46,281 nt of DNA from a virus. The notes beneath the pieces were generated by a model that did not search any database, had not been told where the DNA came from, and saw only the letters and a program-made list of their open reading frames with translations. Positions 824 to 34,625 of this stretch are shown one piece after another. Made by a program: the position numbers and the translations under genes. The DNA lies in the IMG/VR virus record IMGVR_UViG_3300017971_000396. The stretch is one strand, 5' to 3'. The stretch's first letter is position 1; each line of letters starts with the position of its first letter.

Positions 824-1138
824 ATGAAAACTAGAACCGGATTTGTAAGTAATAGTTCATCTTCAAGTTTTATTCTTAGTACAACTTTATCTGCTGAAGA
901 AGTTAAAGAGAGTTTCATTGAAATTCTTAATGGTATGTCTAAGCTTAGTCAAAATACTATTTACGAAGATATTGCAACACAGCTTAAAGATGATGTAGCT
1001 ATGTTTGATGTTGAAAATCATAAAGATGGTGTTGCAGTTTATGATACTTATGATAATGGCATGCCATTTATTATTCGTCAAATTATTGAAGATATGTGCG
1101 AATATACTGGCGGTTATGGTCATGATATTGAATGGTAG
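824..1138 (+). CDS. small protein of the Ser-rich N-terminal-tag family (member 1)
   Basis: Begins MKTRTGFVSNSSSSSFIL, the N-terminus shared by five ORFs in this window. The ATG at 824 directly follows the stop of the upstream gene. Confidence 0.6.
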   Translation: MKTRTGFVSNSSSSSFILSTTLSAEEVKESFIEILNGMSKLSQNTIYEDIATQLKDDVAMFDVENHKDGVAVYDTYDNGMPFIIRQIIEDMCEYTGGYGHDIEW

Positions 1139-2163: not shown

Positions 2164-2712
2164 ATGAAAATCCTTGGTGATAAAATTCTACATGAAACAC
2201 GTTGGCTAAAACTTGTTGAACGTACATATCTTAATAAAGATAATGAAGAACAGAAATGGGTTTTGGCTCAGCGAAATAATGATTGTGCTGCTGTCATGAT
2301 TATTCCTTATCATTACGATGAAAATGGTAAGAAAACATTAGTTATTACCAAGGAATTTCGCCCTGCTCTTGAAGGTTATGAATGGGGATTCCCTGCTGGT
2401 CTTATTGATGATAATGAACCAGTTCTTAAAACTGCAATGCGTGAATTGCATGAAGAAACTGGTCTTGAACTTGATGAAGTTATCATGGTTTCCCCTCCAG
2501 TTTATAACTCAGCTGGTATGACTGATGAAAGTATTTCAATGGTTTGGGTTAAATGTAGTGGTACACCAACTAATAAGTATCAAGAACCTGGTGAAAATAT
2601 TGAAACATTTCTAATGACTCCAACCGATGTTGATAAACTTCTTAGAAAGAATGTTAAGATCGGTGCTAAGAGCTGGATTATTATGAAACGTTTTACAAGA
2701 GATGAAGAATGA
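2164..2712 (+). CDS. Nudix hydrolase (NudE-like)
   Basis: Nudix box GfpaGlidDnEpvlkTAmRELhEETGL. Start chosen at MKILGDK, which has an AAAGG RBS; the longer track ORF 2131-2712 overlaps the previous gene. Confidence 0.7.
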   Translation: MKILGDKILHETRWLKLVERTYLNKDNEEQKWVLAQRNNDCAAVMIIPYHYDENGKKTLVITKEFRPALEGYEWGFPAGLIDDNEPVLKTAMRELHEETGLELDEVIMVSPPVYNSAGMTDESISMVWVKCSGTPTNKYQEPGENIETFLMTPTDVDKLLRKNVKIGAKSWIIMKRFTRDEE

Positions 2713-2915
2713 AAAAGAAAACAAGAGATATTGTTGTTAATGATATCGCATATAAATGGATGGTTAAAGAAAATACTGAAGTATTTCTACCTACACTTCC
2801 AACAGTAGTAATTTGGAAAGCTGATAGTAAAGTTCCTATTTTTAAAGATAGTCTTGAATTTAATGATTACCCAGTTACTCCAAGTATAATTGAAAAGGTT
2901 ATTAAAAGTTTATGA
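2709..2915 (+). CDS. hypothetical small protein
   Basis: 68 aa, ATGA overlap with the upstream gene. Confidence 0.45.
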   Translation: MKKKTRDIVVNDIAYKWMVKENTEVFLPTLPTVVIWKADSKVPIFKDSLEFNDYPVTPSIIEKVIKSL

Positions 2916-3487
2916 CAACAAGAACTTTTACAGTTGGGAAAAACATGCCGCCACAAGGTGTAGCGCCGGCAGTATGTTTGATTAATCCAAAATATGATCG
3001 AAATGTTTCAGCAGCTTTGCGTGCATGTTCATGTCTTGGTGCTAAACAATTATGGTGGACAGGTAATCGAGTTCGTCTTGAAGAAGGACAAAGACTTCCA
3101 AGAGAAGAACGTATGAAAGGTTATATGGATGTTGAGATGCGTCAATACGATAAACCGTTTGATCACTTCCCTAAATGTACACCAGTTGCAATTGAAGTAC
3201 GTGAAAATGCAATTCCGCTTTCACAATTCGAACACCCTGAAAATCCATTATATGTATTTGGACCTGAAGATGGAAGTATTGATCAAAAATATCTTCGTCA
3301 TTGTCACAGATTTGTAGTAATGGAAACAGAACATTGTACCAATTTGGCTGCAGCAGTTTACTTGATACTTTATCATAGACGTTTACAATTAATTAGAGAT
3401 GGTTTACTTGATCCATATGATTTAGTACCTGGTGTACATGAAAATCGTGGATGGGCAGACTATGAAAACACAGAGGCAATAGGATGA
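2912..3487 (+). CDS. SPOUT (SpoU/TrmH-class) RNA 2'-O-methyltransferase-like
   Basis: NvsAAlRacsclGakqLw motif and a later FGpEdGsid...h...LaAAvylil motif, laid out as SpoU motifs 1 and 2/3. Confidence 0.5.
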   Translation: MTTRTFTVGKNMPPQGVAPAVCLINPKYDRNVSAALRACSCLGAKQLWWTGNRVRLEEGQRLPREERMKGYMDVEMRQYDKPFDHFPKCTPVAIEVRENAIPLSQFEHPENPLYVFGPEDGSIDQKYLRHCHRFVVMETEHCTNLAAAVYLILYHRRLQLIRDGLLDPYDLVPGVHENRGWADYENTEAIG

Positions 3488-4056
3488 TTATTAAATTAAA
3501 AGGTCAGTATCGTTTTGGCGACTATCTTGATACAGAAGATATTCGTTTTTTACAAAATACTGTTGGCGGAAAATGGCATATTCATACACATGATGGAAAC
3601 GGAAAACATAGTACAGATGCAACAATATGTAGAGTTTATGGAAATTATTATGAAGATATGCCTCGAAATAAAAGTATTGATGAACTTCCAGTAGATGCAG
3701 AGATTTGTAAAACATGTGCTAAAATTGTAGCTAAATATGTTGACATCATTAAAAAATGTGAAAAAGCTGCAAGCGAAGAAAGTCAAAAACAAATTTATAA
3801 TAGTGTAAAAATTGCACCAGAGAAAAATGTTAATATCAATTTTGGTATGACATCTCCAGATGGTGACGTTAGTATTCAAGGAACTATCCCAGCAAAAATG
3901 GCAAACAGAATTATTGAGATGATTTCAAAAGAAATTCTTAATATTCCAAAAACAATGGATAATATCGAAGAATATTTGAATAACCCTGTTCCTACTACAC
4001 ATACTCCATGTTTAAGTAGTAACATCGCATTTAATAATTCGTCAATATCTGGTTAA
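3484..4056 (+). CDS. hypothetical protein
   Basis: 190-aa ORF, translationally coupled to the upstream gene. Confidence 0.5.
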   Translation: MIIKLKGQYRFGDYLDTEDIRFLQNTVGGKWHIHTHDGNGKHSTDATICRVYGNYYEDMPRNKSIDELPVDAEICKTCAKIVAKYVDIIKKCEKAASEESQKQIYNSVKIAPEKNVNINFGMTSPDGDVSIQGTIPAKMANRIIEMISKEILNIPKTMDNIEEYLNNPVPTTHTPCLSSNIAFNNSSISG

Positions 4057-4117
4057 AAATAACTATACACATAAATTTTTCATGTTATTTTATTTTAACA
4101 ATTAAAGGAGTACCAAC

Positions 4118-4894
4118 ATGGAAATCTCATTAGAAAGACCGAATGGAACAATTCTTCCGAAATCATTTGAAAATGTTAAATCTATTTGGACTGATGAACC
4201 TCATGAAAGAGTTAAAGGACGATATAAATTTATCTCCACAATGAATGTTATTGATACTTTAACTGATGCTGGATGGCATCCTGTTAGTGCTTCTGAAAGT
4301 CATACTCGTCTTGATCAGTATAGAGGTTTTCAAGGACATATGGTTCGTCTAAGAAATGCTCGACAACTTCCTAAAATTAATGATACTCATGTTGAATTGG
4401 TAGTTAAAAATTCACATGCAGGATTTACATCATTTGAATTCTTGGCTGGTCTATTTCGTTTGATTTGTTCAAATGGTTTAGTAATTGCTGATAAGACTTT
4501 TGAATCTAAAAAGATTACTCATGTTGGTTATCAAGCTGAAAAAGTCTTGGAAATCGTAGCTAACCTTGCTGACAATACTACAATGATTTCTAAACACATT
4601 GATGAAATGACATCAACTGTTTTACAAGAAAAACAGAAATTAGAATTCGCTGAAAGAGCTGGAGAAGTTAGAGGTTGGAAAAAATTTGAACCAACTGAAA
4701 TCATTCATCCTCGTCGTAATGAAGATAATGGAAATGACGTTTGGTCAGTCTTTAATGTTATCCAAGAAAATCTTATGAAAGGTGGTATTGATCTTAATGG
4801 GCGACGTTCCAGAGCTATTAAGTCAATTGATAAATCAGTATCACTTAATCAAGACCTATGGGAATTGGCTGAAGAATACGCGGGAATTGTATAA
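4118..4894 (+). CDS. hypothetical protein
   Basis: 258 aa with AAAGGAG 8 nt upstream. Confidence 0.55.
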   Translation: MEISLERPNGTILPKSFENVKSIWTDEPHERVKGRYKFISTMNVIDTLTDAGWHPVSASESHTRLDQYRGFQGHMVRLRNARQLPKINDTHVELVVKNSHAGFTSFEFLAGLFRLICSNGLVIADKTFESKKITHVGYQAEKVLEIVANLADNTTMISKHIDEMTSTVLQEKQKLEFAERAGEVRGWKKFEPTEIIHPRRNEDNGNDVWSVFNVIQENLMKGGIDLNGRRSRAIKSIDKSVSLNQDLWELAEEYAGIV

Positions 4895-5100
4895 TGGAAT
4901 TTGTTCTTTATATTATTTTAGCTTGGGGAATTACAAGTGGTATAATGTTTATTATAAACTTTGCTACTTCTTTTGGTCAATATAACCAACCCAATTGGAA
5001 ACAATATGTGTTTTTCTGGTTAGTTGGAGGTCCAATTGCATGGGTATTTACAACTCCAATTATTTTATGTATTATGATTTATAAGAAACTTGGTGATTAA
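4894..5100 (+). CDS. small membrane protein (2 TM)
   Basis: 68 aa with two hydrophobic helices. Confidence 0.45.
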   Translation: MEFVLYIILAWGITSGIMFIINFATSFGQYNQPNWKQYVFFWLVGGPIAWVFTTPIILCIMIYKKLGD

Positions 5101-5101
5101 A

Positions 5102-5575
5102 ATGAAAACTAGAACAGGATTTGTAAGTAATAGTTCATCTTCAAGTTTCATTATTTTAACTGGTGGAAATTGTAAATGCGATAAATGCGGGGTTGATAGT
5201 TGGGAATTGTTTGTAAAGATGATATCTGAAAGTTATAGTTCAGATGATGAAATCGAAGAAATAAACATAGAAGATTATATCAAAGATATAAATACTGAGA
5301 TTCTAAAGCTACAACTTCAAATCGATGATTATAAAAGATATAACAGAGATGAAGTTTACTATAGTAGCATCGGTTTTGAAATTACATACGGTGAAAAAAT
5401 TGAATGGTTGGAAGAAGAAATTCATCAACGTGAAACAAGAATTGCAGAAGTTGTAGAAAAATCAAAAGAGCGAAATTTTCGCAATGTAGCAATTACTTCA
5501 ATCTCATATCATAATGACGCCGCTAGTAATCTGATGGAACAACTTCAAAAATTAAAAGTCATTGAAGTATTATGA
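5102..5575 (+). CDS. small protein of the Ser-rich N-terminal-tag family (member 2)
   Basis: Begins MKTRTGFVSNSSSSSFIIL. The ATG at 5102 lies just after the upstream stop. The C-terminal part is coiled-coil-like. Confidence 0.6.
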   Translation: MKTRTGFVSNSSSSSFIILTGGNCKCDKCGVDSWELFVKMISESYSSDDEIEEINIEDYIKDINTEILKLQLQIDDYKRYNRDEVYYSSIGFEITYGEKIEWLEEEIHQRETRIAEVVEKSKERNFRNVAITSISYHNDAASNLMEQLQKLKVIEVL

Positions 5576-21339: not shown

Positions 21340-22320
21340 TCATCTCCAATTCTTGTTCTTCTCGTACCATCCAATAGTCCTTTTAATTCCTTCCTCAAAT
21401 GAAACTCTTGGTTCCCATTTTAGTTTCTTTTTCGCTTTTGTTGCATCTATTGCATATCTACGATCGTGCCCTTTACGATCTTTTACAAATCTAATATATT
21501 TATTCTTATCAATATTAATTGTATTACAAATTTTATCAATTACATCGATATTTGAATAAACTGTATTTGCTCCAAAATTATAAACTTCACCAATTTTTCC
21601 TTCATCAGCGGCTCGCAAAAAACCTTTAATATGATCATCTACATAGATCCAATCACGTTCATTTAAACCGTCACCATATAGTGGAAATTCTTCAGATTTA
21701 CATAACTTTCTTATCAATTTAGGAATTAATTTTTCTTCATGTTGATAAGGACCATAATTATTAGAACAGTGAGTTATAATAGCAGGAAACCCATGGGTTT
21801 TAATGAAAGATTTAACCAACATATCAGCAGCAGCCTTACTAGATGAATAAGGCGAACTGGGGTTATATGGAGAGTCCTCTGTAAAAAAGCCTTCACCTAA
21901 TGGAAGATCTCCATAAACTTCATCAGTAGACATATATACAAAACGAAGTTTGAAATCTTTATCATGATATTGACGTGCTTGCATATAATGCATAGATTCG
22001 CTTAATAATACATGTGTACCTTCAATATTAGTATGGACAAATGCTGTAGCATCTGCAATAGAATTATCTACATGAGACTCAGCAGCTAAATGTAAAATAT
22101 GTGTTGGTCTAAAACATCTAAGTGTTTGTCTTACTATATTAATATCACATATATCAGCAATAACTAAACCACAATTCATATTGTGAATTTCTGGATTAGC
22201 GGCATAAGACATATTATCTATTACACAGACTTCATCACCTCGCAATAACAATAGTTCAACGAGGTTTATTCCAATAAACCCAGCACCACCAGTAACTAAA
22301 TATCTATCTCTATTAAACAT
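21340..22320 (-). CDS. NAD-dependent sugar-nucleotide 4,6-dehydratase (RfbB-like, extended SDR)
   Basis: TGGAGFIG Rossmann motif, YMSTDEVYGD, and the YssSKaaaD catalytic YxxxK. Confidence 0.7.
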   Translation of the reverse strand: MFNRDRYLVTGGAGFIGINLVELLLLRGDEVCVIDNMSYAANPEIHNMNCGLVIADICDINIVRQTLRCFRPTHILHLAAESHVDNSIADATAFVHTNIEGTHVLLSESMHYMQARQYHDKDFKLRFVYMSTDEVYGDLPLGEGFFTEDSPYNPSSPYSSSKAAADMLVKSFIKTHGFPAIITHCSNNYGPYQHEEKLIPKLIRKLCKSEEFPLYGDGLNERDWIYVDDHIKGFLRAADEGKIGEVYNFGANTVYSNIDVIDKICNTINIDKNKYIRFVKDRKGHDRRYAIDATKAKKKLKWEPRVSFEEGIKRTIGWYEKNKNWR

Positions 22321-22710: not shown

Positions 22711-23901
22711 TTACTTATCGTATGGGTTATTTACTTGTTGACTAACTGTATAGAATGTAGCACATTTTGGCATATCTTTAATTTTACGAGCTCCAATATA
22801 AGTACAAGCAGAACGTACTCCACCAAGAATATCTTGAATGGTATTAATTACTGGGCCACGATATGGAACGAGAACTTCACGACCTTCGGAAGCTTTATAA
22901 TCATCCTGTTTCCCATAATGTTTTTCCATAGCTTTAGTACTAGACATACCCCAGAATTGTTTGAACTTCTTTTCTTCATATACAGGTTCGTAATATGGAC
23001 GAGGATTAATATTATACCATTGTTCTTCTTCATCACTTTGTGGTAATAATCCACTAACACCGTCAACAAATGATTGTACAGAATTATATTTAGCGTCTTC
23101 TAAAGTTGAATGTGATACATTATATTTAGATACAATCTCACCATCACATTCATCATGACCTGCAAACATACCACCAAGCATTACGAAGTCTGCTCCACCA
23201 CCAAAGGCTTTAGCAATATCTCCTGGATTAGTACATCCACCATCAGACATAATATATCCACCAAGACCATGAGCAGCATCAGCACATTCAACAACAGTAG
23301 TAAATTGAGGACGTCCTACACCAGATTTAATTCTAGTAAGACAAGCGGAACCGGATCCAATACCAACTTTAACACAGTCAGCACCGCGCGTAATAAGTTC
23401 TTCGACCTGTTCTGCCGATACTACATTACCTGCAATCATAAAGATTTTCGGGTTTTCTTTTCTAATTTTGGAAACAAACTCAAGAAATCTTTCAGTGTAT
23501 CCATTAGGAACGTCAATTAATAAAGTTTCAGCGGATAGTGAATGTACTTTCTGCATAACCTTATATTGTTCGTATTCATCGACAGAACGAATTCCTATTG
23601 TAGGAAAAACTAAACTATCATGTATTGCGCTACAATAAATTTTATCCCAATCATCGAGTGTAGTAAATTTACTCATAGCTGTCATCATCTCATATTCTGA
23701 TAATGCTTTTGCCATATCAATCGTAGCGATATTATCCATATTTGCCGCAACGATTGGAACGCCAGTTATTAGTTTATCAGGATTCCATCGACCTCTAAAT
23801 TCTCGTACGAGCGAGACGTCTGCACGCGACGTCAAAGATGAACGCTTTGGTTTCATCATCACTTGAGAAAAATCAAGTTGTGGTTGTTGTATAAGTTGCA
23901 T
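22711..23901 (-). CDS. IMP dehydrogenase/GMP reductase family protein (no CBS pair)
   Basis: GIGSGSACLTR catalytic Cys loop. MSDGGctnpGDiaKAfggGAdfVMLGgmfAG. Confidence 0.65.
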   Translation of the reverse strand: MQLIQQPQLDFSQVMMKPKRSSLTSRADVSLVREFRGRWNPDKLITGVPIVAANMDNIATIDMAKALSEYEMMTAMSKFTTLDDWDKIYCSAIHDSLVFPTIGIRSVDEYEQYKVMQKVHSLSAETLLIDVPNGYTERFLEFVSKIRKENPKIFMIAGNVVSAEQVEELITRGADCVKVGIGSGSACLTRIKSGVGRPQFTTVVECADAAHGLGGYIMSDGGCTNPGDIAKAFGGGADFVMLGGMFAGHDECDGEIVSKYNVSHSTLEDAKYNSVQSFVDGVSGLLPQSDEEEQWYNINPRPYYEPVYEEKKFKQFWGMSSTKAMEKHYGKQDDYKASEGREVLVPYRGPVINTIQDILGGVRSACTYIGARKIKDMPKCATFYTVSQQVNNPYDK

Positions 23902-24237
23902 TTAACAATCCTTTATTTTTTCAATAATACCAGCTTTTACTAGTTTTTCAAGAAAATCATATCCTTTTTCATCATCATAATCAATTGAAATTTCATAAAT
24001 ATCAGCTTCATTTTCTGTATAAAAGTTAAGTTCTTTTTCATATTTTTCAATTTTAGCTATATTATTCTTTTCTTTATACCATTCAAGTTCGTCTTCAATA
24101 TGTTCTTTTATCCAATCATCTTTATGAACATACATATCAAACCACAAATTTTCGAATTTAGTTTGAGGTTTTTCTTTTACTAGAATAATAAACGATGAGC
24201 TACTACTATTACTTACAAATCCGTTTCTACTTTTCAT
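23902..24237 (-). CDS. small protein of the Ser-rich N-terminal-tag family (member 3)
   Basis: Begins MKSRNGFVSNSSSSSFIILV. Confidence 0.6.
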   Translation of the reverse strand: MKSRNGFVSNSSSSSFIILVKEKPQTKFENLWFDMYVHKDDWIKEHIEDELEWYKEKNNIAKIEKYEKELNFYTENEADIYEISIDYDDEKGYDFLEKLVKAGIIEKIKDC

Positions 24238-25094: not shown

Positions 25095-25387
25095 TAATCT
25101 TTCCTTAACATAGGTTTACCATAAAATAGTGAGCCTTGATATGTATAATTACCATAGAGTTCACTTGTAAATTTATACCAAAAATCTACTTCCCATCCAT
25201 TAGTTTCACCGCCATCCATTTCAAAAGAAAAACCAATTGCTAACATTGCTTCTTCTATATGACTAACAGGTATAAGTTCATCAAATGATAATGTTTTTTC
25301 ACCAGATTCAACGAATTCAGAAACTTTTACTTTAACTTCATCTTTATGCATTAGGTAATCTTCCCATGGTTGTTTTTTCGTAAGCAA
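25094..25387 (-). CDS. hypothetical protein
   Basis: 97-aa ORF. Confidence 0.4.
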   Translation of the reverse strand: MLTKKQPWEDYLMHKDEVKVKVSEFVESGEKTLSFDELIPVSHIEEAMLAIGFSFEMDGGETNGWEVDFWYKFTSELYGNYTYQGSLFYGKPMLRKD

Positions 25388-26444
25388 TATTTAGAAGTGC
25401 GAAACTTCCAGTTAGTTTATAAGTTTGATCTTTCCAATCAAATACTACACCTTCAAACGGTGCAGGTGGACCGGGGAGTTGAGCAAATACGTCCATATAA
25501 CTTGAGTCCAAAAGCCCTTTGTTAGAACATTCCATAAATACATCTACTGCAAGTAATCTATGATCATCTTTACTTGTAAGTGACATAGTACCCTCAGAAT
25601 CATCAAGTAGCAAATCACCCATTTTAAAAATGTTTAAATCAACATGTAATCTAATAGCTCTCATTATTTGATAACGTTGTTTTTTATCAATCTGTGTAAA
25701 CTCAGAAGAGTACTTAGGATCTAAATTAGATTTAATTTTTACCATATTAGATGTATTTCTCATAACCCAACGATCAAGAATATCATCAGCCGCCTTAGTA
25801 ACATCCATATTGAAATGTTCTTTCATATGAAGAATAAGACGTTCTTTATAAATTTGATTTAAAGTGACATCTTTTGGAACAGTTCTTAATAGAGATTCTT
25901 TATAACGTTCATAACGATGATTATCAATGATATAAGTAATTTGATTAGGACCACGAACATTAAATTCAATACCGTCACCAATCATACCACGAATATAATT
26001 TGGACATTCTTTTGTTTTTACATTACCTTTTTCATCGAAAGTAACAATAGAATGCATAACGATTGTTGGTTTATATTTAAACATACGATTTGTAAAATCA
26101 TTCATAATCTCAAAATTGATAAATTCTCCGCTAAGATCATAAATATGTGCATCACGTAATAATTGTTCTAATTCACGAGCAGCACTAATCATAACATTTG
26201 CAGCTTCATCATTACTAATCATTCCAATAAGTTTTTCAGGAACAATTGGTTCAACTGCAGTTGTTTTGTTTCGTGCAATTACTGCTTTTCCACCACGCAT
26301 TGTTAAATGAAGATTAATACCATCAACCTTTTCATAAGTTGGAGTATCACCTTTGACAATGGAATCAAACATGTCAACAAGATCTTGACCAGTAAGATTT
26401 ACATTTTCAAAGGGATGTTTCATATGTCCTGCTGCTCCACCCAT
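25344..26444 (-). CDS. hypothetical protein with KxDG motif (possible ATP-dependent ligase/nucleotidyltransferase-like)
   Basis: Start reassigned to MGGAAGHMK, with GGAGG 10 nt upstream. YEKVDGINLHLT resembles ligase motif I, and a C-terminal FEGVVF...YKL resembles motifs IV/V. Weak. Confidence 0.3.
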   Translation of the reverse strand: MGGAAGHMKHPFENVNLTGQDLVDMFDSIVKGDTPTYEKVDGINLHLTMRGGKAVIARNKTTAVEPIVPEKLIGMISNDEAANVMISAARELEQLLRDAHIYDLSGEFINFEIMNDFTNRMFKYKPTIVMHSIVTFDEKGNVKTKECPNYIRGMIGDGIEFNVRGPNQITYIIDNHRYERYKESLLRTVPKDVTLNQIYKERLILHMKEHFNMDVTKAADDILDRWVMRNTSNMVKIKSNLDPKYSSEFTQIDKKQRYQIMRAIRLHVDLNIFKMGDLLLDDSEGTMSLTSKDDHRLLAVDVFMECSNKGLLDSSYMDVFAQLPGPPAPFEGVVFDWKDQTYKLTGSFALLNIAYEKTTMGRLPNA

Positions 26445-26445
26445 A

Positions 26446-26973
26446 TCAGTCACAGCCTCCACAGTCACTACTACCAGAATCATAAGATGAACTTCCACTA
26501 CTATAAGAAGTATCATTATCATAACTAGAACTTCGTGTTGGTTCTGGATCTGGAGTATAAGAAGATTCTTCAGTAGCTTGTGAGATACTAGAAGAAATCA
26601 TATCATTATCACTAAGTACTGATTCATATTCATTAATCATTACAGGTTCTTCGTAATACATATCACCTTGTTCTAATTCGTAATAAACTTCTGTAAATGC
26701 ATCAACAAGCATTACCAACATGAGAAAATCGTCTTCATCGAAGAAAATATCTTCATCCATTTCAGGATATTTAGTTCGGACTTGTTTATTAACAACACCA
26801 TCTTTCATACGAGCTTTCATTGTAGGTGTTACTTCCTTTTTCAAAGCATCATATTTTTCTTGACGTTCGTTAATTTCCTCACGAAGCTTTTTCATTTCTT
26901 CGAGTTTAGATTTAAGTTCAGCTTTTGTTAGTTCTTTTTCTTTTTTACCAAATAATTTACCAAAGAATCCCAT
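26446..26973 (-). CDS. hypothetical protein with coiled-coil N-terminus and Ser/Tyr-rich tail ending CGGCD
   Basis: 175-aa ORF. Confidence 0.5.
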   Translation of the reverse strand: MGFFGKLFGKKEKELTKAELKSKLEEMKKLREEINERQEKYDALKKEVTPTMKARMKDGVVNKQVRTKYPEMDEDIFFDEDDFLMLVMLVDAFTEVYYELEQGDMYYEEPVMINEYESVLSDNDMISSSISQATEESSYTPDPEPTRSSSYDNDTSYSSGSSSYDSGSSDCGGCD

Positions 26974-26996
26974 TTGAAATTCTCCTTATTTTATTG

Positions 26997-27569
26997 TTAA
27001 TGCCACTCAGTTTGTTCACTTGATAACTCACCAAGCAACTGAAATACTTCTTCTTTAATTGGTCCATTTACATGTGTTGGAATATAACTATTAAACTTTT
27101 CCAATCTTCGATATTGTAAATCTTTTCTAAAATCGGATGCGGATATTGGAAGTGGAGATGCATCAAACGTAATATCATCAATAATGTTAATACTTGAATT
27201 ATGTTCTTCCATATATTTTTTAATGCCAGACCAACGTCTATCTAATTTACCATCTTTGTTTGAACCACCAACAATTACATCACAATCTTTTAAAGTTTCA
27301 ATAAAATCATATGCACCTTTAACCGGAGATGGAGCTTGAGAAATACTAATCCAAACATTTGGTAGATGTTGACAATAAATATCAAGTAACGTAAGCGCAA
27401 TTTGAGGATCAATTGGTTTGTTATTTATTGTTCTTAAACTCTTGGATGTTGGACCAGGAGCAGAAATCATAACATAAACTTTATCAACCGCTTTTGAATA
27501 CTTTTCAATCATCATATAATGACCGATATGTGGTGGTTTAAAAGAACCTGGAATTACTGCTATTTTCAT
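26997..27569 (-). CDS. cytidylyltransferase-fold nucleotidyltransferase (NMN/NaMN adenylyltransferase-like)
   Basis: AViPGSFkPpHiGHy matches the (H/T)xGH motif. A later ISAsdfR resembles the ISSTxxR-type motif. Start set at MKIAV. Confidence 0.55.
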   Translation of the reverse strand: MKIAVIPGSFKPPHIGHYMMIEKYSKAVDKVYVMISAPGPTSKSLRTINNKPIDPQIALTLLDIYCQHLPNVWISISQAPSPVKGAYDFIETLKDCDVIVGGSNKDGKLDRRWSGIKKYMEEHNSSINIIDDITFDASPLPISASDFRKDLQYRRLEKFNSYIPTHVNGPIKEEVFQLLGELSSEQTEWH

Positions 27570-27576
27570 AATTTTT

Positions 27577-28026
27577 CTACCAATATAATCCATATCCACC
27601 AATATCAATTCGTGGAACTTTGTTGCTTGTCTTATTATACTTTAAATCTGGTTTTCCAAGTTTAGCTATTTCTAACCAAAGTATATCAAAATCCATTTCA
27701 CAGAAAAAACATTCGAATTTTTTTGTATCTTCAAGTTCTTCAAATGATACATCAATATCATCTTCATATTCTTCCATTGCATATTTAAGATCATCGTCGT
27801 TTAATATACCATGTTTATAAAGCTTCTTAAAATCACCAATAGTAATACTGATATCTTCATATTCTGATGCACAATCTTCTTGAAGATTAACTCCACAGAT
27901 TTTAACACCTTCAGAATACGCTTCTAATAATTCACGTTGATTTTCACAATTAACTTCATAATATTGATCATCATATTTACCATGTCCATCTCGATGACTA
28001 TCACCTATTCTTAAATTTACAAGCAT
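27577..28026 (-). CDS. acidic hypothetical protein
   Basis: 149 aa with GDSHRDGHG near the N-terminus. Not assignable. Confidence 0.45.
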   Translation of the reverse strand: MLVNLRIGDSHRDGHGKYDDQYYEVNCENQRELLEAYSEGVKICGVNLQEDCASEYEDISITIGDFKKLYKHGILNDDDLKYAMEEYEDDIDVSFEELEDTKKFECFFCEMDFDILWLEIAKLGKPDLKYNKTSNKVPRIDIGGYGLYW

Positions 28027-28697
28027 TACTTACTCCATTTTTCAATAAATAATTTTTCACTTTCATGCCATACTGGATCATTTCTAAAATCTCCAACACT
28101 ATAATGAGTAACATCAATAGGAACTGTTCCAATTGTGTAACCTTTTTGGTGGGCGGATAAACAGAAGTCCATATCATAATGATGGAATGTAAACTGCGGA
28201 TCAAATTTTACATCTTTGAAAACTTTTACTTTAGCAGCAATAAACAAACCATCAACAATAATACAACGTTTTCCGATTGGTCCAAAATTTGTATCCCATT
28301 CTTTTCCTTGATGCGAATGACGTACCAAACCAGACCACTTAGATTTATCAGAATTATGCCAGACAGCTGGACTTTTTAATGTCCATGAAGATGTTCCAGC
28401 TAAACCCATAATATCAAATTCTGATTCTTCTAATATTTTTTCTAATTTAGATAAGTTTTCTTCAAAAATATTCCAATCATCAGATTCCATATTGATAGTA
28501 ATATCATCATGCATCATAATAAAAATATTATCGTCATTTTGTGCACACTTATAATCAAGCACTTCGTTATATCGTTCGCTAAGACCTTTAGTATTCTCAT
28601 AGAAAATAACATGAGATGTACCACTAACAAAGTCTGCAAACTTCGTTTCTAACCATTCGTCTTTAGATTTTCTTGTACAAATTACTATCGTAATCAT
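28026..28697 (-). CDS. glycosyltransferase (GT-A fold, family 2-like)
   Basis: IVICTRKS N-terminus and a DxD-like MMHDDI motif. Confidence 0.5.
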   Translation of the reverse strand: MITIVICTRKSKDEWLETKFADFVSGTSHVIFYENTKGLSERYNEVLDYKCAQNDDNIFIMMHDDITINMESDDWNIFEENLSKLEKILEESEFDIMGLAGTSSWTLKSPAVWHNSDKSKWSGLVRHSHQGKEWDTNFGPIGKRCIIVDGLFIAAKVKVFKDVKFDPQFTFHHYDMDFCLSAHQKGYTIGTVPIDVTHYSVGDFRNDPVWHESEKLFIEKWSK

Positions 28698-29102
28698 TTA
28701 TGAGCGCTCGAAATGTACTAATGAATTTTTAGGAAATTTAATTGCATCAAAAGCATCACTAGAATTTGGACTATAACCATAGATTTCTTTAAACTTTCTT
28801 ATAGCTTCATTATCATTATAAGAATAACCATCTTCCAACTCATCTACTTCTTCTTTAGTAAACTTATCTGAAAGATTATCTAAAACATATTCGGGACATT
28901 CCCAAAGATAACCAACCTCTTGAGAAAATATAACACATTCTTCACCAAGAAATGTTTTTGTTTTATCTTCTCTAAAATCTTTCATTAATGCTTTTTGAAT
29001 ATCATCGAGTGAATTCATGAATTCTTTTTCTTCAGTTTTTGGAAGAACTAATACGAATGAACAACTACTACTGTTACTTACAAAACCACTTCTACTTTTC
29101 AT
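28698..29102 (-). CDS. small protein of the Ser-rich N-terminal-tag family (member 4)
   Basis: Begins MKSRSGFVSNSSSCSFVLVLP. Confidence 0.6.
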   Translation of the reverse strand: MKSRSGFVSNSSSCSFVLVLPKTEEKEFMNSLDDIQKALMKDFREDKTKTFLGEECVIFSQEVGYLWECPEYVLDNLSDKFTKEEVDELEDGYSYNDNEAIRKFKEIYGYSPNSSDAFDAIKFPKNSLVHFERS

Positions 29103-29105
29103 AAT

Positions 29106-29708
29106 TTAATTTCTTTCCATTATTTCTGCTTGCTTTAATCCAAGCTTATCTTTTTCATTCATTTCCAATCCCATTTTAAATTTAATTAACGCGATCGTTG
29201 CACAAATATTATGGCCATCATTAATATAATTTAATGAACTTTTCTTAAGCATATCAAAATAGATATCCTTAATTAAACTATCCATCTTCTGTGCTTCTTC
29301 TTTACTTTCATAACGGCCACTTTCAGCATATTCGCCATCAGGTCTTCCAAGATAAATATCAATACTTGGAAAATCAGCTTCATATGACTTATAAAGGTTG
29401 ATTAATTCTTTTTGGAAGTTGGCACCGTACTTAATACTATATGCAACAGCTAATAATGGCGAACTATCTGTAATAATCATATTGGCTCCATTATTAAGAA
29501 AGATTGTTTCTTTCCTAATTTGTTTACTAAATAGATACAACTGATCATATTTAGTAATTTGTTTTCCTTCATAAGCCCATGATTTAACATGTTCATCAAC
29601 TTGTTCAATATTAAGACCAAGTCTATCAAGCTTAGCAAAAATTGTTGCGGTTGAATTTGTTTTACCAACTCCAGGACCTGCCAAAAGATTTATACGTCGG
29701 ATTTTCAT
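29106..29708 (-). CDS. P-loop NTPase (putative nucleoside/nucleotide kinase, NadR-RNK/AAA_28-like)
   Basis: LLAGPGVGKT Walker A, ITDSSPL Walker B-like. Confidence 0.45.
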   Translation of the reverse strand: MKIRRINLLAGPGVGKTNSTATIFAKLDRLGLNIEQVDEHVKSWAYEGKQITKYDQLYLFSKQIRKETIFLNNGANMIITDSSPLLAVAYSIKYGANFQKELINLYKSYEADFPSIDIYLGRPDGEYAESGRYESKEEAQKMDSLIKDIYFDMLKKSSLNYINDGHNICATIALIKFKMGLEMNEKDKLGLKQAEIMERN

Positions 29709-29748
29709 ACTTTATTTCTCATTAAATCATCTTTACATTTATTATCAA

Positions 29749-30363
29749 TTATCGAATTCTTCCTTCATGATCAAATTGAATATCTAATGAATCCATTTTT
29801 TGACGAACTTGAGAAAAAGTAACTGGTTTATAATCCCATGCATCAACACCTACATCAAAAGATTTTCCATGACCAGGTAGAAGTCCATGAGAGTGACCAT
29901 ATAAATGCCAAGATCCACGATGAGAACAATCCCAAACTCTCATTGAATAATGACATAGAATAATCTTTTGTTTATCCCAAGTAATTTTATTAAGTTCTCT
30001 GATACTTGCAAAAACATCAGCAGCCTTTTTGAAAATCTTACGGTTATCATGATTACCACGAATAAGATGGATATGACCATTAAGACGTCCAATAAGTTCT
30101 CTAAGTCTATCTTCAGAAGTTACAAAAGCAATATCACCGAGACAATAAACAGTATCTTTTTGACCAACTGTTTTATTCCAATTAGCAATCAATGCTTCGT
30201 TCATTTCGTTTTTGCGTTCTTCAGCAATATGTTGATCAACCCAAACTAATTGACCTTCTTCATTTTTAATTTCATCACCATCTCGTAACCACGGTCGTTT
30301 ACAATATCGAATAACATTAGCGTGATCTAAGTGTAAATCTGATGTAAATAATGGTTCGCTCAT
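29749..30363 (-). CDS. calcineurin-like metallophosphoesterase
   Basis: SDLHLDH, GDIA, GNHD, HYS.., GHSHG motif series. Confidence 0.7.
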   Translation of the reverse strand: MSEPLFTSDLHLDHANVIRYCKRPWLRDGDEIKNEEGQLVWVDQHIAEERKNEMNEALIANWNKTVGQKDTVYCLGDIAFVTSEDRLRELIGRLNGHIHLIRGNHDNRKIFKKAADVFASIRELNKITWDKQKIILCHYSMRVWDCSHRGSWHLYGHSHGLLPGHGKSFDVGVDAWDYKPVTFSQVRQKMDSLDIQFDHEGRIR

Positions 30364-30376
30364 TCTACTCTCTTAA

Positions 30377-30817
30377 TTATTTTACTTCGAACTTCTGTTT
30401 GAGTCGTTCGTATTCAGCGCGTTCGTTTAATTCTTTTAGCGCTTCTTTTTCACTATCTCTTTTCTCTTTAGCTAAACGTTTAGTTTCACGTCGTTTTTCA
30501 TCAGCTTCACGTTTACGTTTACGAAGATATTTAAGATGTTCTTTATATTCAATACTTTCGTGAATATCCCAATATTCAGCAGTTGCTTTATATACACTAT
30601 CAACAATAAGATCTCGTTTTTCGAACTTACATTGTGCTGCCCAATTACAAACTGCTTCAAAAGAATGAAATTCAGAAATACCGCTTCTTTCTTCAAACTG
30701 ATGACCAGGTGCTATTCGATATTCGGCGATCCAGATTTCATCGCCTTCTTCATATTCTTCGCAATTTTTAAAATGCATAAATAACCTGTTAAATAAAAAT
30801 GGATTTTTGTTACTCAA
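30377..30817 (-). CDS. hypothetical protein with K/E/R-rich C-terminal helix
   Basis: The track ORF begins at a TTG. The first ATG (MHFKNC) is at 30778. Confidence 0.45.
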   Translation of the reverse strand: MSNKNPFLFNRLFMHFKNCEEYEEGDEIWIAEYRIAPGHQFEERSGISEFHSFEAVCNWAAQCKFEKRDLIVDSVYKATAEYWDIHESIEYKEHLKYLRKRKREADEKRRETKRLAKEKRDSEKEALKELNERAEYERLKQKFEVK

Positions 30818-30846
30818 TATAATATAACATGGAATTTAACAAAGTA

Positions 30847-30911
30847 TAGTAGAATGTATCATATTTTAATCACTAAGTAATATAATGTTACATATATGAT
30901 ACATTCTACTA
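30847..30911. repeat. perfect 18-bp inverted repeat with 29-nt spacer
   Basis: tagtagaatgtatcatat (30847-30864) is the reverse complement of atatgatacattctacta (30894-30911). Confidence 0.85.
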
Positions 30912-31059
30912 AAGAACTTCTAACTAGTAAAAGTTGTTTTATTTCCCAAAGTACAATTACAAATACCACTTCCGCCATTTATGGGATTATTTGAACATTC
31001 TAAACATGGATCATTATAATCACCACCAAGTGTTATTGTATAATTGTCAGGAAATTTAA

Positions 31060-34166: not shown

Positions 34167-34625
34167 TCATTTTACTAGTTTCATTCTTGCAAGTGTACTT
34201 GCTACTTTACCATCAAATTGACCATCAAATTTTTCTTTGAGCAGTTTCATTATTTTACCCATGTCTCGTGGATTATCAAATCCATTTTCCTTGATCATCG
34301 TATCAATAGTGTCTGAAAGAAATTCTTCAGTTAATTGAGCAGGAAGATAAACTTTAACAGTACCAGCTTCTGCTTGTAATTGTGCTACTTCAAAATCGTT
34401 ATTAATACATTGTGTTTTCTTAATATCGATCATTTCTTCTAATCCCTTAAGAAATTTACGAATAACATTTTGTACTTTAACATCGTCTTCTTGGTCAATT
34501 TTTTCAAGACGTTGTACCTCACTAAAAAGAGTAGTTAGCGTTTCATATTTTTTAATGTTACCATCTTTTTTAGCAAGAAGTCTATCTTTTTTAATTTCAT
34601 TAATAATCATAAATATCGTCTCCAA
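34167..34625 (-). CDS. GatB/YqeY domain protein
   Basis: YLPaQLteEfL...GfdnprDMGKiMkllkekfdGqfDGKvastLarmkL matches the YqeY C-terminal signature. Confidence 0.65.
   Translation of the reverse strand: METIFMIINEIKKDRLLAKKDGNIKKYETLTTLFSEVQRLEKIDQEDDVKVQNVIRKFLKGLEEMIDIKKTQCINNDFEVAQLQAEAGTVKVYLPAQLTEEFLSDTIDTMIKENGFDNPRDMGKIMKLLKEKFDGQFDGKVASTLARMKLVK

Follow-up and report, generated by a model that had tools for sequence, protein, structure and literature searches.

What does a small adenylyltransferase carried by a phage make, and with which protein does it work? The question is raised by a viral DNA of 46,281 nucleotides (IMG/VR record IMGVR_UViG_3300017971_000396; this whole stretch is called the window below), in which a nucleotidyltransferase (NTase) gene of the HIGH superfamily (26997..27569, minus strand) lies not far from a P-loop kinase gene (29106..29708, minus strand). 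The initial annotation combined the two as nicotinamide mononucleotide (NMN) or nicotinic acid mononucleotide (NaMN) adenylyltransferase and NadR-like kinase, which could together replenish the NAD+ consumed by a poly(ADP-ribose) polymerase (PARP) of the same phage. Both open reading frames (ORFs) exist at these positions on the minus strand, and the NAD-salvage reading is partly supported. The best-supported conclusion from sequence comparisons is that the recurrent functional partner of the NTase is an RNA-ligase-like protein (25344..26444, minus strand), rather than the kinase. On the strength of sequences and structural models, we give an even chance to the view that the two constitute an undescribed HIGH-NTase and RNA-ligase-like module, which would serve in RNA-end repair or modification.

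The NTase gene starts with the ATG at 27569 and encodes 190 amino acids; an alternative ATG at 27593 would give a 198-amino-acid product (P0001). The sequence reads MKIAVIPGSFKPPHIGH... and contains a literal HIGH motif. The HxGH signature pointed out in the initial annotation is indeed present: residues 12-17 (nt 27519-27536) read P-P-H-I-G-H, and residues 142-148 (nt 27126-27146) form I-S-A-S-D-F-R, the second motif of the superfamily. The protein matches Pfam CTP_transf_like (E 4.5e-6, 27.3 bits, gathering score 21). A word-index search returned two close homologues only, and tblastn against phage records gave no match; a HMMER scan of 1.84 billion representatives retrieved 566 representative homologues at E<=1e-3, of which 137 were at E<=1e-10. 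Across 42 aligned stand-alone members, conservation is 90% or higher at P7, G8, P12, P13, G16, H17, S143 and R148, and the family signature can be written as PGSFKPPHxGH, ISxPxxK, PSPV, GxSxKxxDxxRW and ISAxDxR. Judged by these motifs, the NTase is a motif-intact HIGH-superfamily adenylyltransferase from an uncharacterised, mostly phage-borne clade.

HIGH enzymes of the phosphopantetheine adenylyltransferase (PPAT), NMN adenylyltransferase (NMNAT) and FMN adenylyltransferase (FMNAT) class move the AMP of ATP onto a phosphate, and the product is A(5')pp-X. The curated NCBIfam models for such enzymes all score the NTase far below their cutoffs: 31 bits for PPAT (TIGR01510, cutoff 103.3; the single protein aligns at residues 3-37 only), 28.2 bits for NadD (TIGR00482, cutoff 112), 22.3 and 20 bits for NadR (TIGR01526, cutoff 341; PRK08099, cutoff 201), 16.6 bits for archaeal NMNAT (TIGR01527, cutoff 181) and about 13 bits, against about 400, for the bifunctional NMNAT/Nudix models. 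The equivalog cutoffs were reached by none of the 42 family members tested, and the best E-values with NMNAT models were 1e-7 to 1e-9. Counted across these members, matches were obtained with the PPAT model in 38, with NMNAT/NaMNAT models in 27, 26, 19 and fewer, and with FAD synthase in 4.

Comparisons with solved structures and reference proteins lead in the same direction. As a single sequence searched against the Protein Data Bank (PDB), the NTase matched PPAT best (E 0.009). With the family profile, PPAT 3nd5 came first (6e-10, 42.5 bits) and Staphylococcus aureus PPAT reached 1.4e-8, both over the full length; the NMNATs came next, namely archaeal 1f9a (8.6e-8, 35.4 bits), Bas30_86 (9x6f; 1.3e-6, 31.6 bits) and Bacillus subtilis NadD (1kam; 2.6e-6, 30.6 bits). 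The entry 9X6F is the phage NadR-like enzyme Bas30_86 (PMC13464706). In hhalign, the NTase family aligned to Escherichia coli CoaD with a probability of 94.7% (score 51, 145 columns), to the NMNAT domain of E. coli NadR with 80% (score 42, 163 columns) and to NadD with 53%. A Foldseek search, used as support only since the AlphaFold model of the NTase is of low confidence, placed PPATs in the top 17 positions, with NadD and NMNAT interleaved among the hits. The best PHROG, on the other side, is the NMNAT family phrog_3462 (2.3e-9, 152 residues aligned).

By sequence, the NTase belongs with the PPAT/NMNAT-like adenylyltransferases and forms a clade of its own, roughly equidistant from both; PPAT stands ahead of the NMNATs, but by a small margin. 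Because no curated threshold is reached and PPAT and NMNAT are both close, the acceptor substrate is not assignable by homology. The proposed NMN/NaMN adenylyltransferase label thus holds in so far as a HIGH adenylyltransferase with matches to the NMNAT PHROG and to Bas30_86 is concerned, and goes too far where the curated NMNAT models are concerned. Of the two competing classes that the initial annotation had named, CoaD/PPAT is in fact the best match of the NTase, with the small margin just mentioned, while glycerol-3-phosphate cytidylyltransferase is not among the matches listed. A cytidylyltransferase reading, for sugar-phosphate or glycerol-phosphate, was rejected since no such model occurs among the family matches listed: TagD, HldE and ethanolamine-phosphate cytidylyltransferase are all absent among the 25 most-matched NCBIfam families of the 42 members.

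The partner is a protein of 366 amino acids for which no Pfam, PHROG or NCBIfam model was found, and which matched two to three phage records by tblastn. Its AlphaFold2 model, built on a 45-sequence alignment, has a predicted local distance difference test score (pLDDT) of 88.2 and a predicted template modelling score (pTM) of 0.86, and the nearest solved folds are RNA ligases: NgrRnl, T4 Rnl2, REL1 and Trl1. Motif I is K38-x-D40-G41 (KVDG), invariant in the 45 sequences, and the same holds for R57, E111 (motif III), E330-G331-x-V333 (motif IV) and K342 (motif V). With T4 Rnl2, Naegleria NgrRnl and trypanosome REL1, the protein shares the nucleotidyltransferase fold, the KVDG lysine, motifs III, IV (EGVVF) and V (YKLTG), the lack of an OB domain and, near the N-terminus, a segment of the hxxFEN type that precedes the lysine by about 25 residues. 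In the model, a helical module of about 150 residues is inserted between motifs IIIa and IV, and motif V is followed by one helix only (residues 347-358) and no OB domain. The profile search recovered at least 1265 members of the family, and almost all of them carry the label 'hypothetical'. Weak matches to Pfam RNA_ligase (best E-value 1.4e-3) and to DNA_ligase_aden (2.7e-3) were each obtained for 3 of 17 members. The assignment is based on predicted fold and motifs because sequence profiles miss the solved ligases. The confident model predicts a covalent nucleotidyltransferase of the Rnl2-like RNA-ligase type. Identity as a DNA ligase or capping enzyme was considered and rejected, as the OB domain is missing and the top-ranking folds are those of RNA ligases. 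RNA ligases with such a fold work through lysyl-AMP and AppRNA intermediates.

Evidence that connects the two proteins comes from gene fusion. Long homologues of the NTase, of 600-2000 amino acids, carry the NTase domain at about residues 420-600, and their N-terminal 400 residues resemble the ligase-like protein of the window, as found by BLAST of all window proteins and confirmed by jackhmmer. The fusion counts cover the best 149 of the 566 NTase representatives and the best 120 of the at least 1265 ligase-like hits. A ligase-like domain is present in 54 of these 149 NTase representatives, preceding the NTase in 49 and following it in 5, and reciprocally 81 of the 120 ligase-like proteins contain an NTase domain. 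When the window proteins were compared with the extra domains of the long fusions, matches came from the NTase and the ligase-like protein only. The fusion also exists in a cultured virus: Microcystis phage Mel-JY01 encodes a 639-amino-acid NTase-ligase fusion (WWT39297.1) annotated as 'cytidylyltransferase like protein'. Three long fusions (P0090, P0104 and P0125) have in addition a 2H phosphoesterase domain with both HxT motifs, the layout in P0125 being ligase at 5-404, NTase at 423-600 and 2H at 624-755. Enzymes of the 2H type open 2',3'-cyclic phosphates, and the domain ties the putative module to RNA ends with cyclic phosphates.

A further observation on the fusions concerns P0138, a 1580-amino-acid NTase-ligase protein, which shares a 91-residue stretch with the window protein encoded at 13859-15184 (minus strand). 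This protein and that of 16244-17527 (minus strand) are paralogues of 427-441 amino acids that share 42% identity from end to end, and Pfam matches neither.

Association is also seen where the two are encoded separately. In the window, the NTase, a 175-amino-acid protein (26446..26973, minus strand) and the ligase-like protein follow one another as separate genes of one co-directional block. Neither Pfam nor PHROGs gave a match for the product of the middle ORF, which resembles a coiled coil at its N-terminus and is acidic and rich in Ser at its C-terminus. In the closest relative (locus L009), the NTase is 83% identical, and a phosphoesterase gene upstream is followed by genes for a 132-amino-acid protein, a glycosyltransferase (GT), a 153-amino-acid protein, the NTase, a 188-amino-acid protein, the ligase-like protein (378 amino acids) and an 86-amino-acid protein, and then by an ADP-ribosylglycohydrolase gene; a counterpart of the 175-amino-acid gene occupies the same position (56% identity over 87 amino acids). 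In two T4-like contigs (L002 and L003), ligase-like (411 amino acids) and NTase (197 amino acids) genes stand in reverse order right after the major capsid gene gp23, and a non-homologous 308-amino-acid gene fills the slot between them. Among 80 viral loci collected through the NTase profile, 16 contain the ligase-like domain: it is fused to the NTase in 11, encoded by a consecutive ORF in another frame overlapping by 4 nt in 1, and found about 1.25-1.3 kb away in 4. None of the window kinase, phosphoesterase, GT, Nudix and PARP genes was found in the 80 viral NTase loci.

Two details of these loci may be added. The ADP-ribosylglycohydrolase gene of L009 (5752-6648; Pfam ADP_ribosyl_GH) lies two genes past the ligase-like gene, and the corresponding position of the window holds three small unrelated genes. 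In marine T4-like phages (L033 9386-10549 and about 25 similar loci), the NTase makes up the C-terminal half of a larger protein, some 385 amino acids long, whose N-terminal residues, about 180 in number, are Lys/Glu/Pro-rich, of low complexity and probably disordered, and end in a conserved TTEGETFxVNLARKAL. This extension was considered as a possible ligase-like domain and found to be unrelated (hhalign probability 0.2%).

Several results weigh against an NTase-ligase module. For 28 of the viral loci at least 5 kb is available on both sides of the NTase, and in 19 of them no ligase-like gene occurs in the stretch; an NTase that so often occurs without it fits an enzyme making a diffusible small molecule such as NAD+. 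Of the 80 loci, 26 have a different AAA_28 gene at a distance of about 2 kb on the downstream side of the NTase. The 80 loci represent few lineages and are not independent observations, and the 2H domain is limited to the three fusions. On the structural side, the NTase model has a pLDDT of 61 and was built from a 2-sequence alignment, and the ligase-like family profile found no ligase under E 2 in the PDB.

If the NTase and the ligase-like protein do form a module, the pair would act on RNA ends that are broken or carry a 5' modification. The NTase would transfer AMP from ATP onto a phosphate to give A(5')pp-X, and would supply a pyrophosphate-linked adenylate to the module. X could be NMN, in which case NAD+ would become available to an NAD-using step of the module or to the ADP-ribose enzymes of the phage; alternatively, X could be a phosphate-bearing RNA end or a cofactor. 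The kinase and the adjacent metallophosphoesterase could heal RNA ends, or the kinase might phosphorylate a nucleoside. That the NTase product is NAD+, made either for salvage or within the module, is a possibility we take seriously while holding it somewhat more doubtful than not.

Among the rival explanations, the one that survives best is close to the initial annotation. It takes the NTase as an NMNAT and the AAA_28 protein as a nicotinamide-riboside (NR) kinase, so that a split NadR-like salvage route from NR through NMN to NAD+ would rebuild NAD+ after its use by the phage PARP or by host NADases, as in phage NARP3; we regard this as unlikely. For the NTase half, it can point to the NMNAT PHROG, to the profile matches with 1f9a, 9x6f and 1kam, to the 27 of 42 members matching NMNAT/NaMNAT models, and to the HxGH motif, which is that of NMNATs and not the TxGH of E. 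coli PPAT. The frequent occurrence of the NTase without a ligase-like gene also suits it, and these are the very domains employed by the NAD+ pathways known from phages (PMC7824862, PMC13464706). On the opposing side stand the distance of the NMNAT models from their cutoffs (e.g., 22 bits versus 341 for NadR) and the rank of PPAT as best match by profile, hhalign and fold.

The kinase half turns on the kinase itself. In this protein of 200 amino acids, residues 11-17 (GPGVGKT) form the Walker A motif and IITDSS is Walker-B-like, and its assignment to Pfam AAA_28 is sound (E 2.8e-8, 34.6 bits, threshold 27), as the initial annotation had it. For the more specific NadR-RNK likeness the results are mixed. 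The sole other family match is phrog_2107, 'thymidylate kinase' (7.8e-9), and NCBIfam gave no match; the single sequence found nothing significant in the PDB, and a 4-sequence profile gave adenylate kinase (0.045) and deoxyguanosine kinase (0.054) and no NadR at E<=10. In hhalign, the kinase aligned weakly with E. coli NadR over 148 columns of the RNK domain (231-392; probability 32-59%, score 33-37), and the full length of this alignment favours the salvage reading; among the controls, Adk, CoaE and T4 Pnk (control sequence verified) scored 35-40 on the P-loop only, and Tmk 29.5 over 122 columns.

Nor does the kinase travel with the NTase. They are encoded separately, three other genes lie in the interval, and in L009 two unrelated genes fill the kinase slot while the phosphoesterase and the downstream block are retained. 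Homologues of the kinase occur in unrelated contexts without the NTase, in loci L007 and L004 (the context of the latter being unannotated). Because it is absent from the L009 block and its homologues are found elsewhere, the kinase is an independently inherited gene, with no fixed NTase partner. That a second phage lineage also has an AAA_28 gene close to the NTase speaks for salvage, but the 26 loci concerned are marine T4-like phages with UvsW and PTPS, and their AAA_28 gene is related to the window kinase at the family level only (hhalign probability 18%). As regards L007 (region 3930-5543), its homologue is 47% identical and is located about 2.5 kb downstream of two genes, one for a histidine phosphatase and one for a 3'-5' polymerase of the Thg1 family; further downstream comes a dnd-like set of genes for DNA phosphorothioation.

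The genomic setting of the salvage reading is likewise mixed. The PARP gene named in the initial annotation is real (41729..43042, minus strand) and of eukaryote type, with a catalytic domain (Pfam PARP, 2.3e-30), WGR (7.7e-13) and PARP_reg (6.2e-6). The Nudix gene (2131/2164..2712, plus strand), for which ADP-ribose hydrolysis had been suggested, is also real and of the ADP-sugar pyrophosphatase type, its NCBIfam matches being NudE 'ADP compounds hydrolase' (6.1e-14) and YffH/AdpP (7.3e-9), although the NudE score of 52 bits falls short of the cutoff of 169. These two genes, the ADP-ribosylglycohydrolase of L009 and the domain types of NTase and kinase agree with an NAD+-replenishing pair; the absence of the kinase from L009 and the recurrence of the ligase-like partner do not, and the pervasive fusion to an RNA-ligase-like domain is left unexplained. 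The suggested analogy to the NadV/NatV genes of vibriophages is not borne out: neither NAMPT nor PnuC was recognised by Pfam in the window genes scanned, with some small ORFs and the rest of the genome lying outside the scan.

Known phage NAD+ pathways resemble the locus in parts. Like the NadR-type enzymes (Bas30_86 of NARP3, 9X6F/9X6H, and E. coli NadR), the phage has a HIGH adenylyltransferase and an AAA_28 P-loop kinase; unlike them, the two are encoded apart, NadR models give 20-22 bits versus cutoffs of 201-341, and PnuC was not seen in the window. With the NadV/NatV pathway (NARP2; vibriophage KVP40 and jumbo phages), in which NAMPT is accompanied by an NMNAT-Nudix fusion, the genome shares an NMNAT-like HIGH domain and a Nudix gene, but the latter is unfused, 24 kb away and on the other strand. 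Because of the thresholds, the partner genes and the co-inheritance pattern of the kinase, membership in NARP2 or NARP3 is not upheld.

A second alternative keeps the NTase and the ligase-like protein together as an RNA-end system in which the NTase itself acts on RNA or recharges the ligase; argued by analogy, it seems to us clearly improbable. In one version, the NTase would use 5'-pppA-RNA instead of ATP and add NMN or phosphopantetheine, so that the RNA would receive its NAD or dephospho-CoA cap after transcription. For E. coli PPAT, capping of pppA-RNA with dephospho-CoA has been reported in vitro (review PMC11253889), which makes an RNA-capping role for a ligase-fused HIGH NTase conceivable. 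In another version, the NTase would regenerate NAD+ from the NMN freed by an NAD+-dependent RNA ligase that would be the first of its kind. Such a system might be linked to the PARP, Nudix and vault-protein genes of the phage.

A third alternative, to which we attach little credence, is that the NTase is PPAT-like and acts on 4'-phosphopantetheine, either for dephospho-CoA synthesis or for dephospho-CoA capping of 5'-triphosphate RNA. It draws on the first rank of PPAT in the PDB profile search (3nd5), in hhalign (CoaD) and in Foldseek, on the 38 of 42 members matching TIGR01510, and on the reported pppA-RNA activity of the E. coli enzyme (PMC11253889). The NTase is similar in size to CoaD, has it as best full-length profile and fold match, and shows a comparable motif layout after strand 2 (ISxPxxK, versus SPSKK in PPAT). 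However, it scores 31 bits against a 103-bit cutoff, its lead over NMNATs is narrow (42 versus 35 and 31 bits), and it differs in having HxGH in place of the TxGH of E. coli PPAT and in its own signatures PGSFKPPHxGH, PSPV and GxSxKxxDxxRW; its partner is the ligase-like protein, and no other CoA-pathway gene is nearby.

That the NTase, like TagD or HldE domain II, activates a sugar or polyol phosphate for the GT two genes upstream is hardly credible, for although GT, 149-amino-acid and NTase genes are adjacent and kept together in L009 and an RmlB-like dehydratase is encoded in the window, TagD, HldE and ethanolamine-phosphate cytidylyltransferase are missing from the most-matched families and the GT occurs in 0 of the 80 other viral NTase loci.

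We return to the NTase and the ligase-like protein as a module for RNA-end repair or modification, for which other RNA repair systems offer a comparison. In fungal and plant Trl1, ligase, kinase and 2H cyclic phosphodiesterase are joined in one chain, and some of the fusions described above likewise combine a ligase-like domain, a middle domain and a 2H domain in one polypeptide; the middle domain here is a HIGH adenylyltransferase and not a polynucleotide kinase. Bacterial Pnkp joins kinase, metallophosphoesterase and ligase. The window kinase also stands beside a metallophosphoesterase gene, about 3 kb from the ligase-like gene; unlike in Pnkp, kinase and phosphoesterase are not contiguous with the ligase-like gene, and the kinase is not conserved. 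Hen1 and Tpt1 were not seen. In jumbo phages, sets of kinase, phosphoesterase and ligase are known, as are HIGH NTases fused to Nudix or P-loop kinase domains for NAD+ synthesis (PMC7824862); a HIGH NTase-ligase fusion is not mentioned in that review. In a limited search, no description of an NTase-ligase-like module was found in Pfam, PHROGs, NCBIfam or the literature searched. By analogy, we infer that the HIGH-NTase and Rnl-like module may be a variant of the healing-and-sealing systems represented by T4 Pnk/Rnl, Pnkp/Hen1 and Trl1.

The window as a whole is AT-rich (about 30% GC), and its genes lie on the minus strand from about 11.8 kb onward; tRNA genes were not found in it. At the DNA level, the region 26000-31000 had just two short matches among 50,697 phage records, both inside the phosphoesterase gene. 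This gene (29749..30363, minus strand), directly upstream of the kinase, encodes a calcineurin-like metallophosphoesterase of 204 amino acids (Metallophos_2 5.7e-8; phrog_547 5e-52) and is kept in L009 at 71% identity. The GT between kinase and NTase (28026..28697, minus strand) is family-2-like (Pfam Glyco_tranf_2_5 4.6e-8; phrog_20092 2.1e-8), and the ORF that follows it upstream of the NTase (27577..28026, minus strand) encodes a protein of 149 amino acids and unknown function. L009 has both genes in unchanged order, with 61% and 48% identity, respectively.

The remaining gene between kinase and GT (28698-29102, minus strand) is one of five small genes that have in common an 18-residue N-terminus, M[KR]xRxGF[IV]SNSSSxSF, and are otherwise fully divergent. 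The other four are located at 824-1138 (plus), 5102-5575 (plus), 23902-24237 (minus) and 40941-41387 (minus), and phrog_7397 matches residues 1-25 only of these proteins. From its sequence pattern, the shared N-terminus could be a targeting or packaging peptide. At 37886-40351 (minus strand), 1.4 kb from the PARP gene, an 821-amino-acid protein similar to the major vault protein (MVP) is encoded (Pfam MVP_shoulder 4.9e-27, Vault_3 1.9e-10, Band_7); the arrangement recalls MVP and vPARP of the eukaryotic vault, here in a phage, and MVP homologues of bacteria and an 'RNA vault' are subjects of preprints. Further genes of the window encode, on the minus strand, an IMPDH/GMP-reductase-like protein without CBS insert (22711-23901; Pfam 4.9e-66), the RmlB-like NAD-dependent dehydratase/epimerase (21340-22320), a YqeY (GatB-like) domain protein (34167-34625) and an RNase T-type exonuclease (44312-44890), and, on the plus strand, a guanylate kinase (1148-1672), a SpoU/TrmH-type methyltransferase (2912-3487) and a DUF932 protein (4118-4894).

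For annotation, these results mean that a label of 'NMN adenylyltransferase' or 'cytidylyltransferase' given from the HxGH motif alone is unjustified. The family is widespread: it comprises at least 566 representative clusters for the NTase and at least 1265 proteins of the ligase-like type, and most are found on metagenomic contigs of phage size. Rebuilding of NAD+ by phages (NARP1-3) and phage RNA repair (T4 Pnk/Rnl) are both central to the contest with those bacterial defences that act by NAD+ depletion or tRNA cleavage. Should the module serve to repair or cap RNA, it would represent a new enzyme combination among the healing-and-sealing systems; should the NTase prove to be an NMNAT, NAD+ supply would be physically linked to an RNA ligase. 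The presence of the fusion in cultured phage Mel-JY01 makes both outcomes directly testable.

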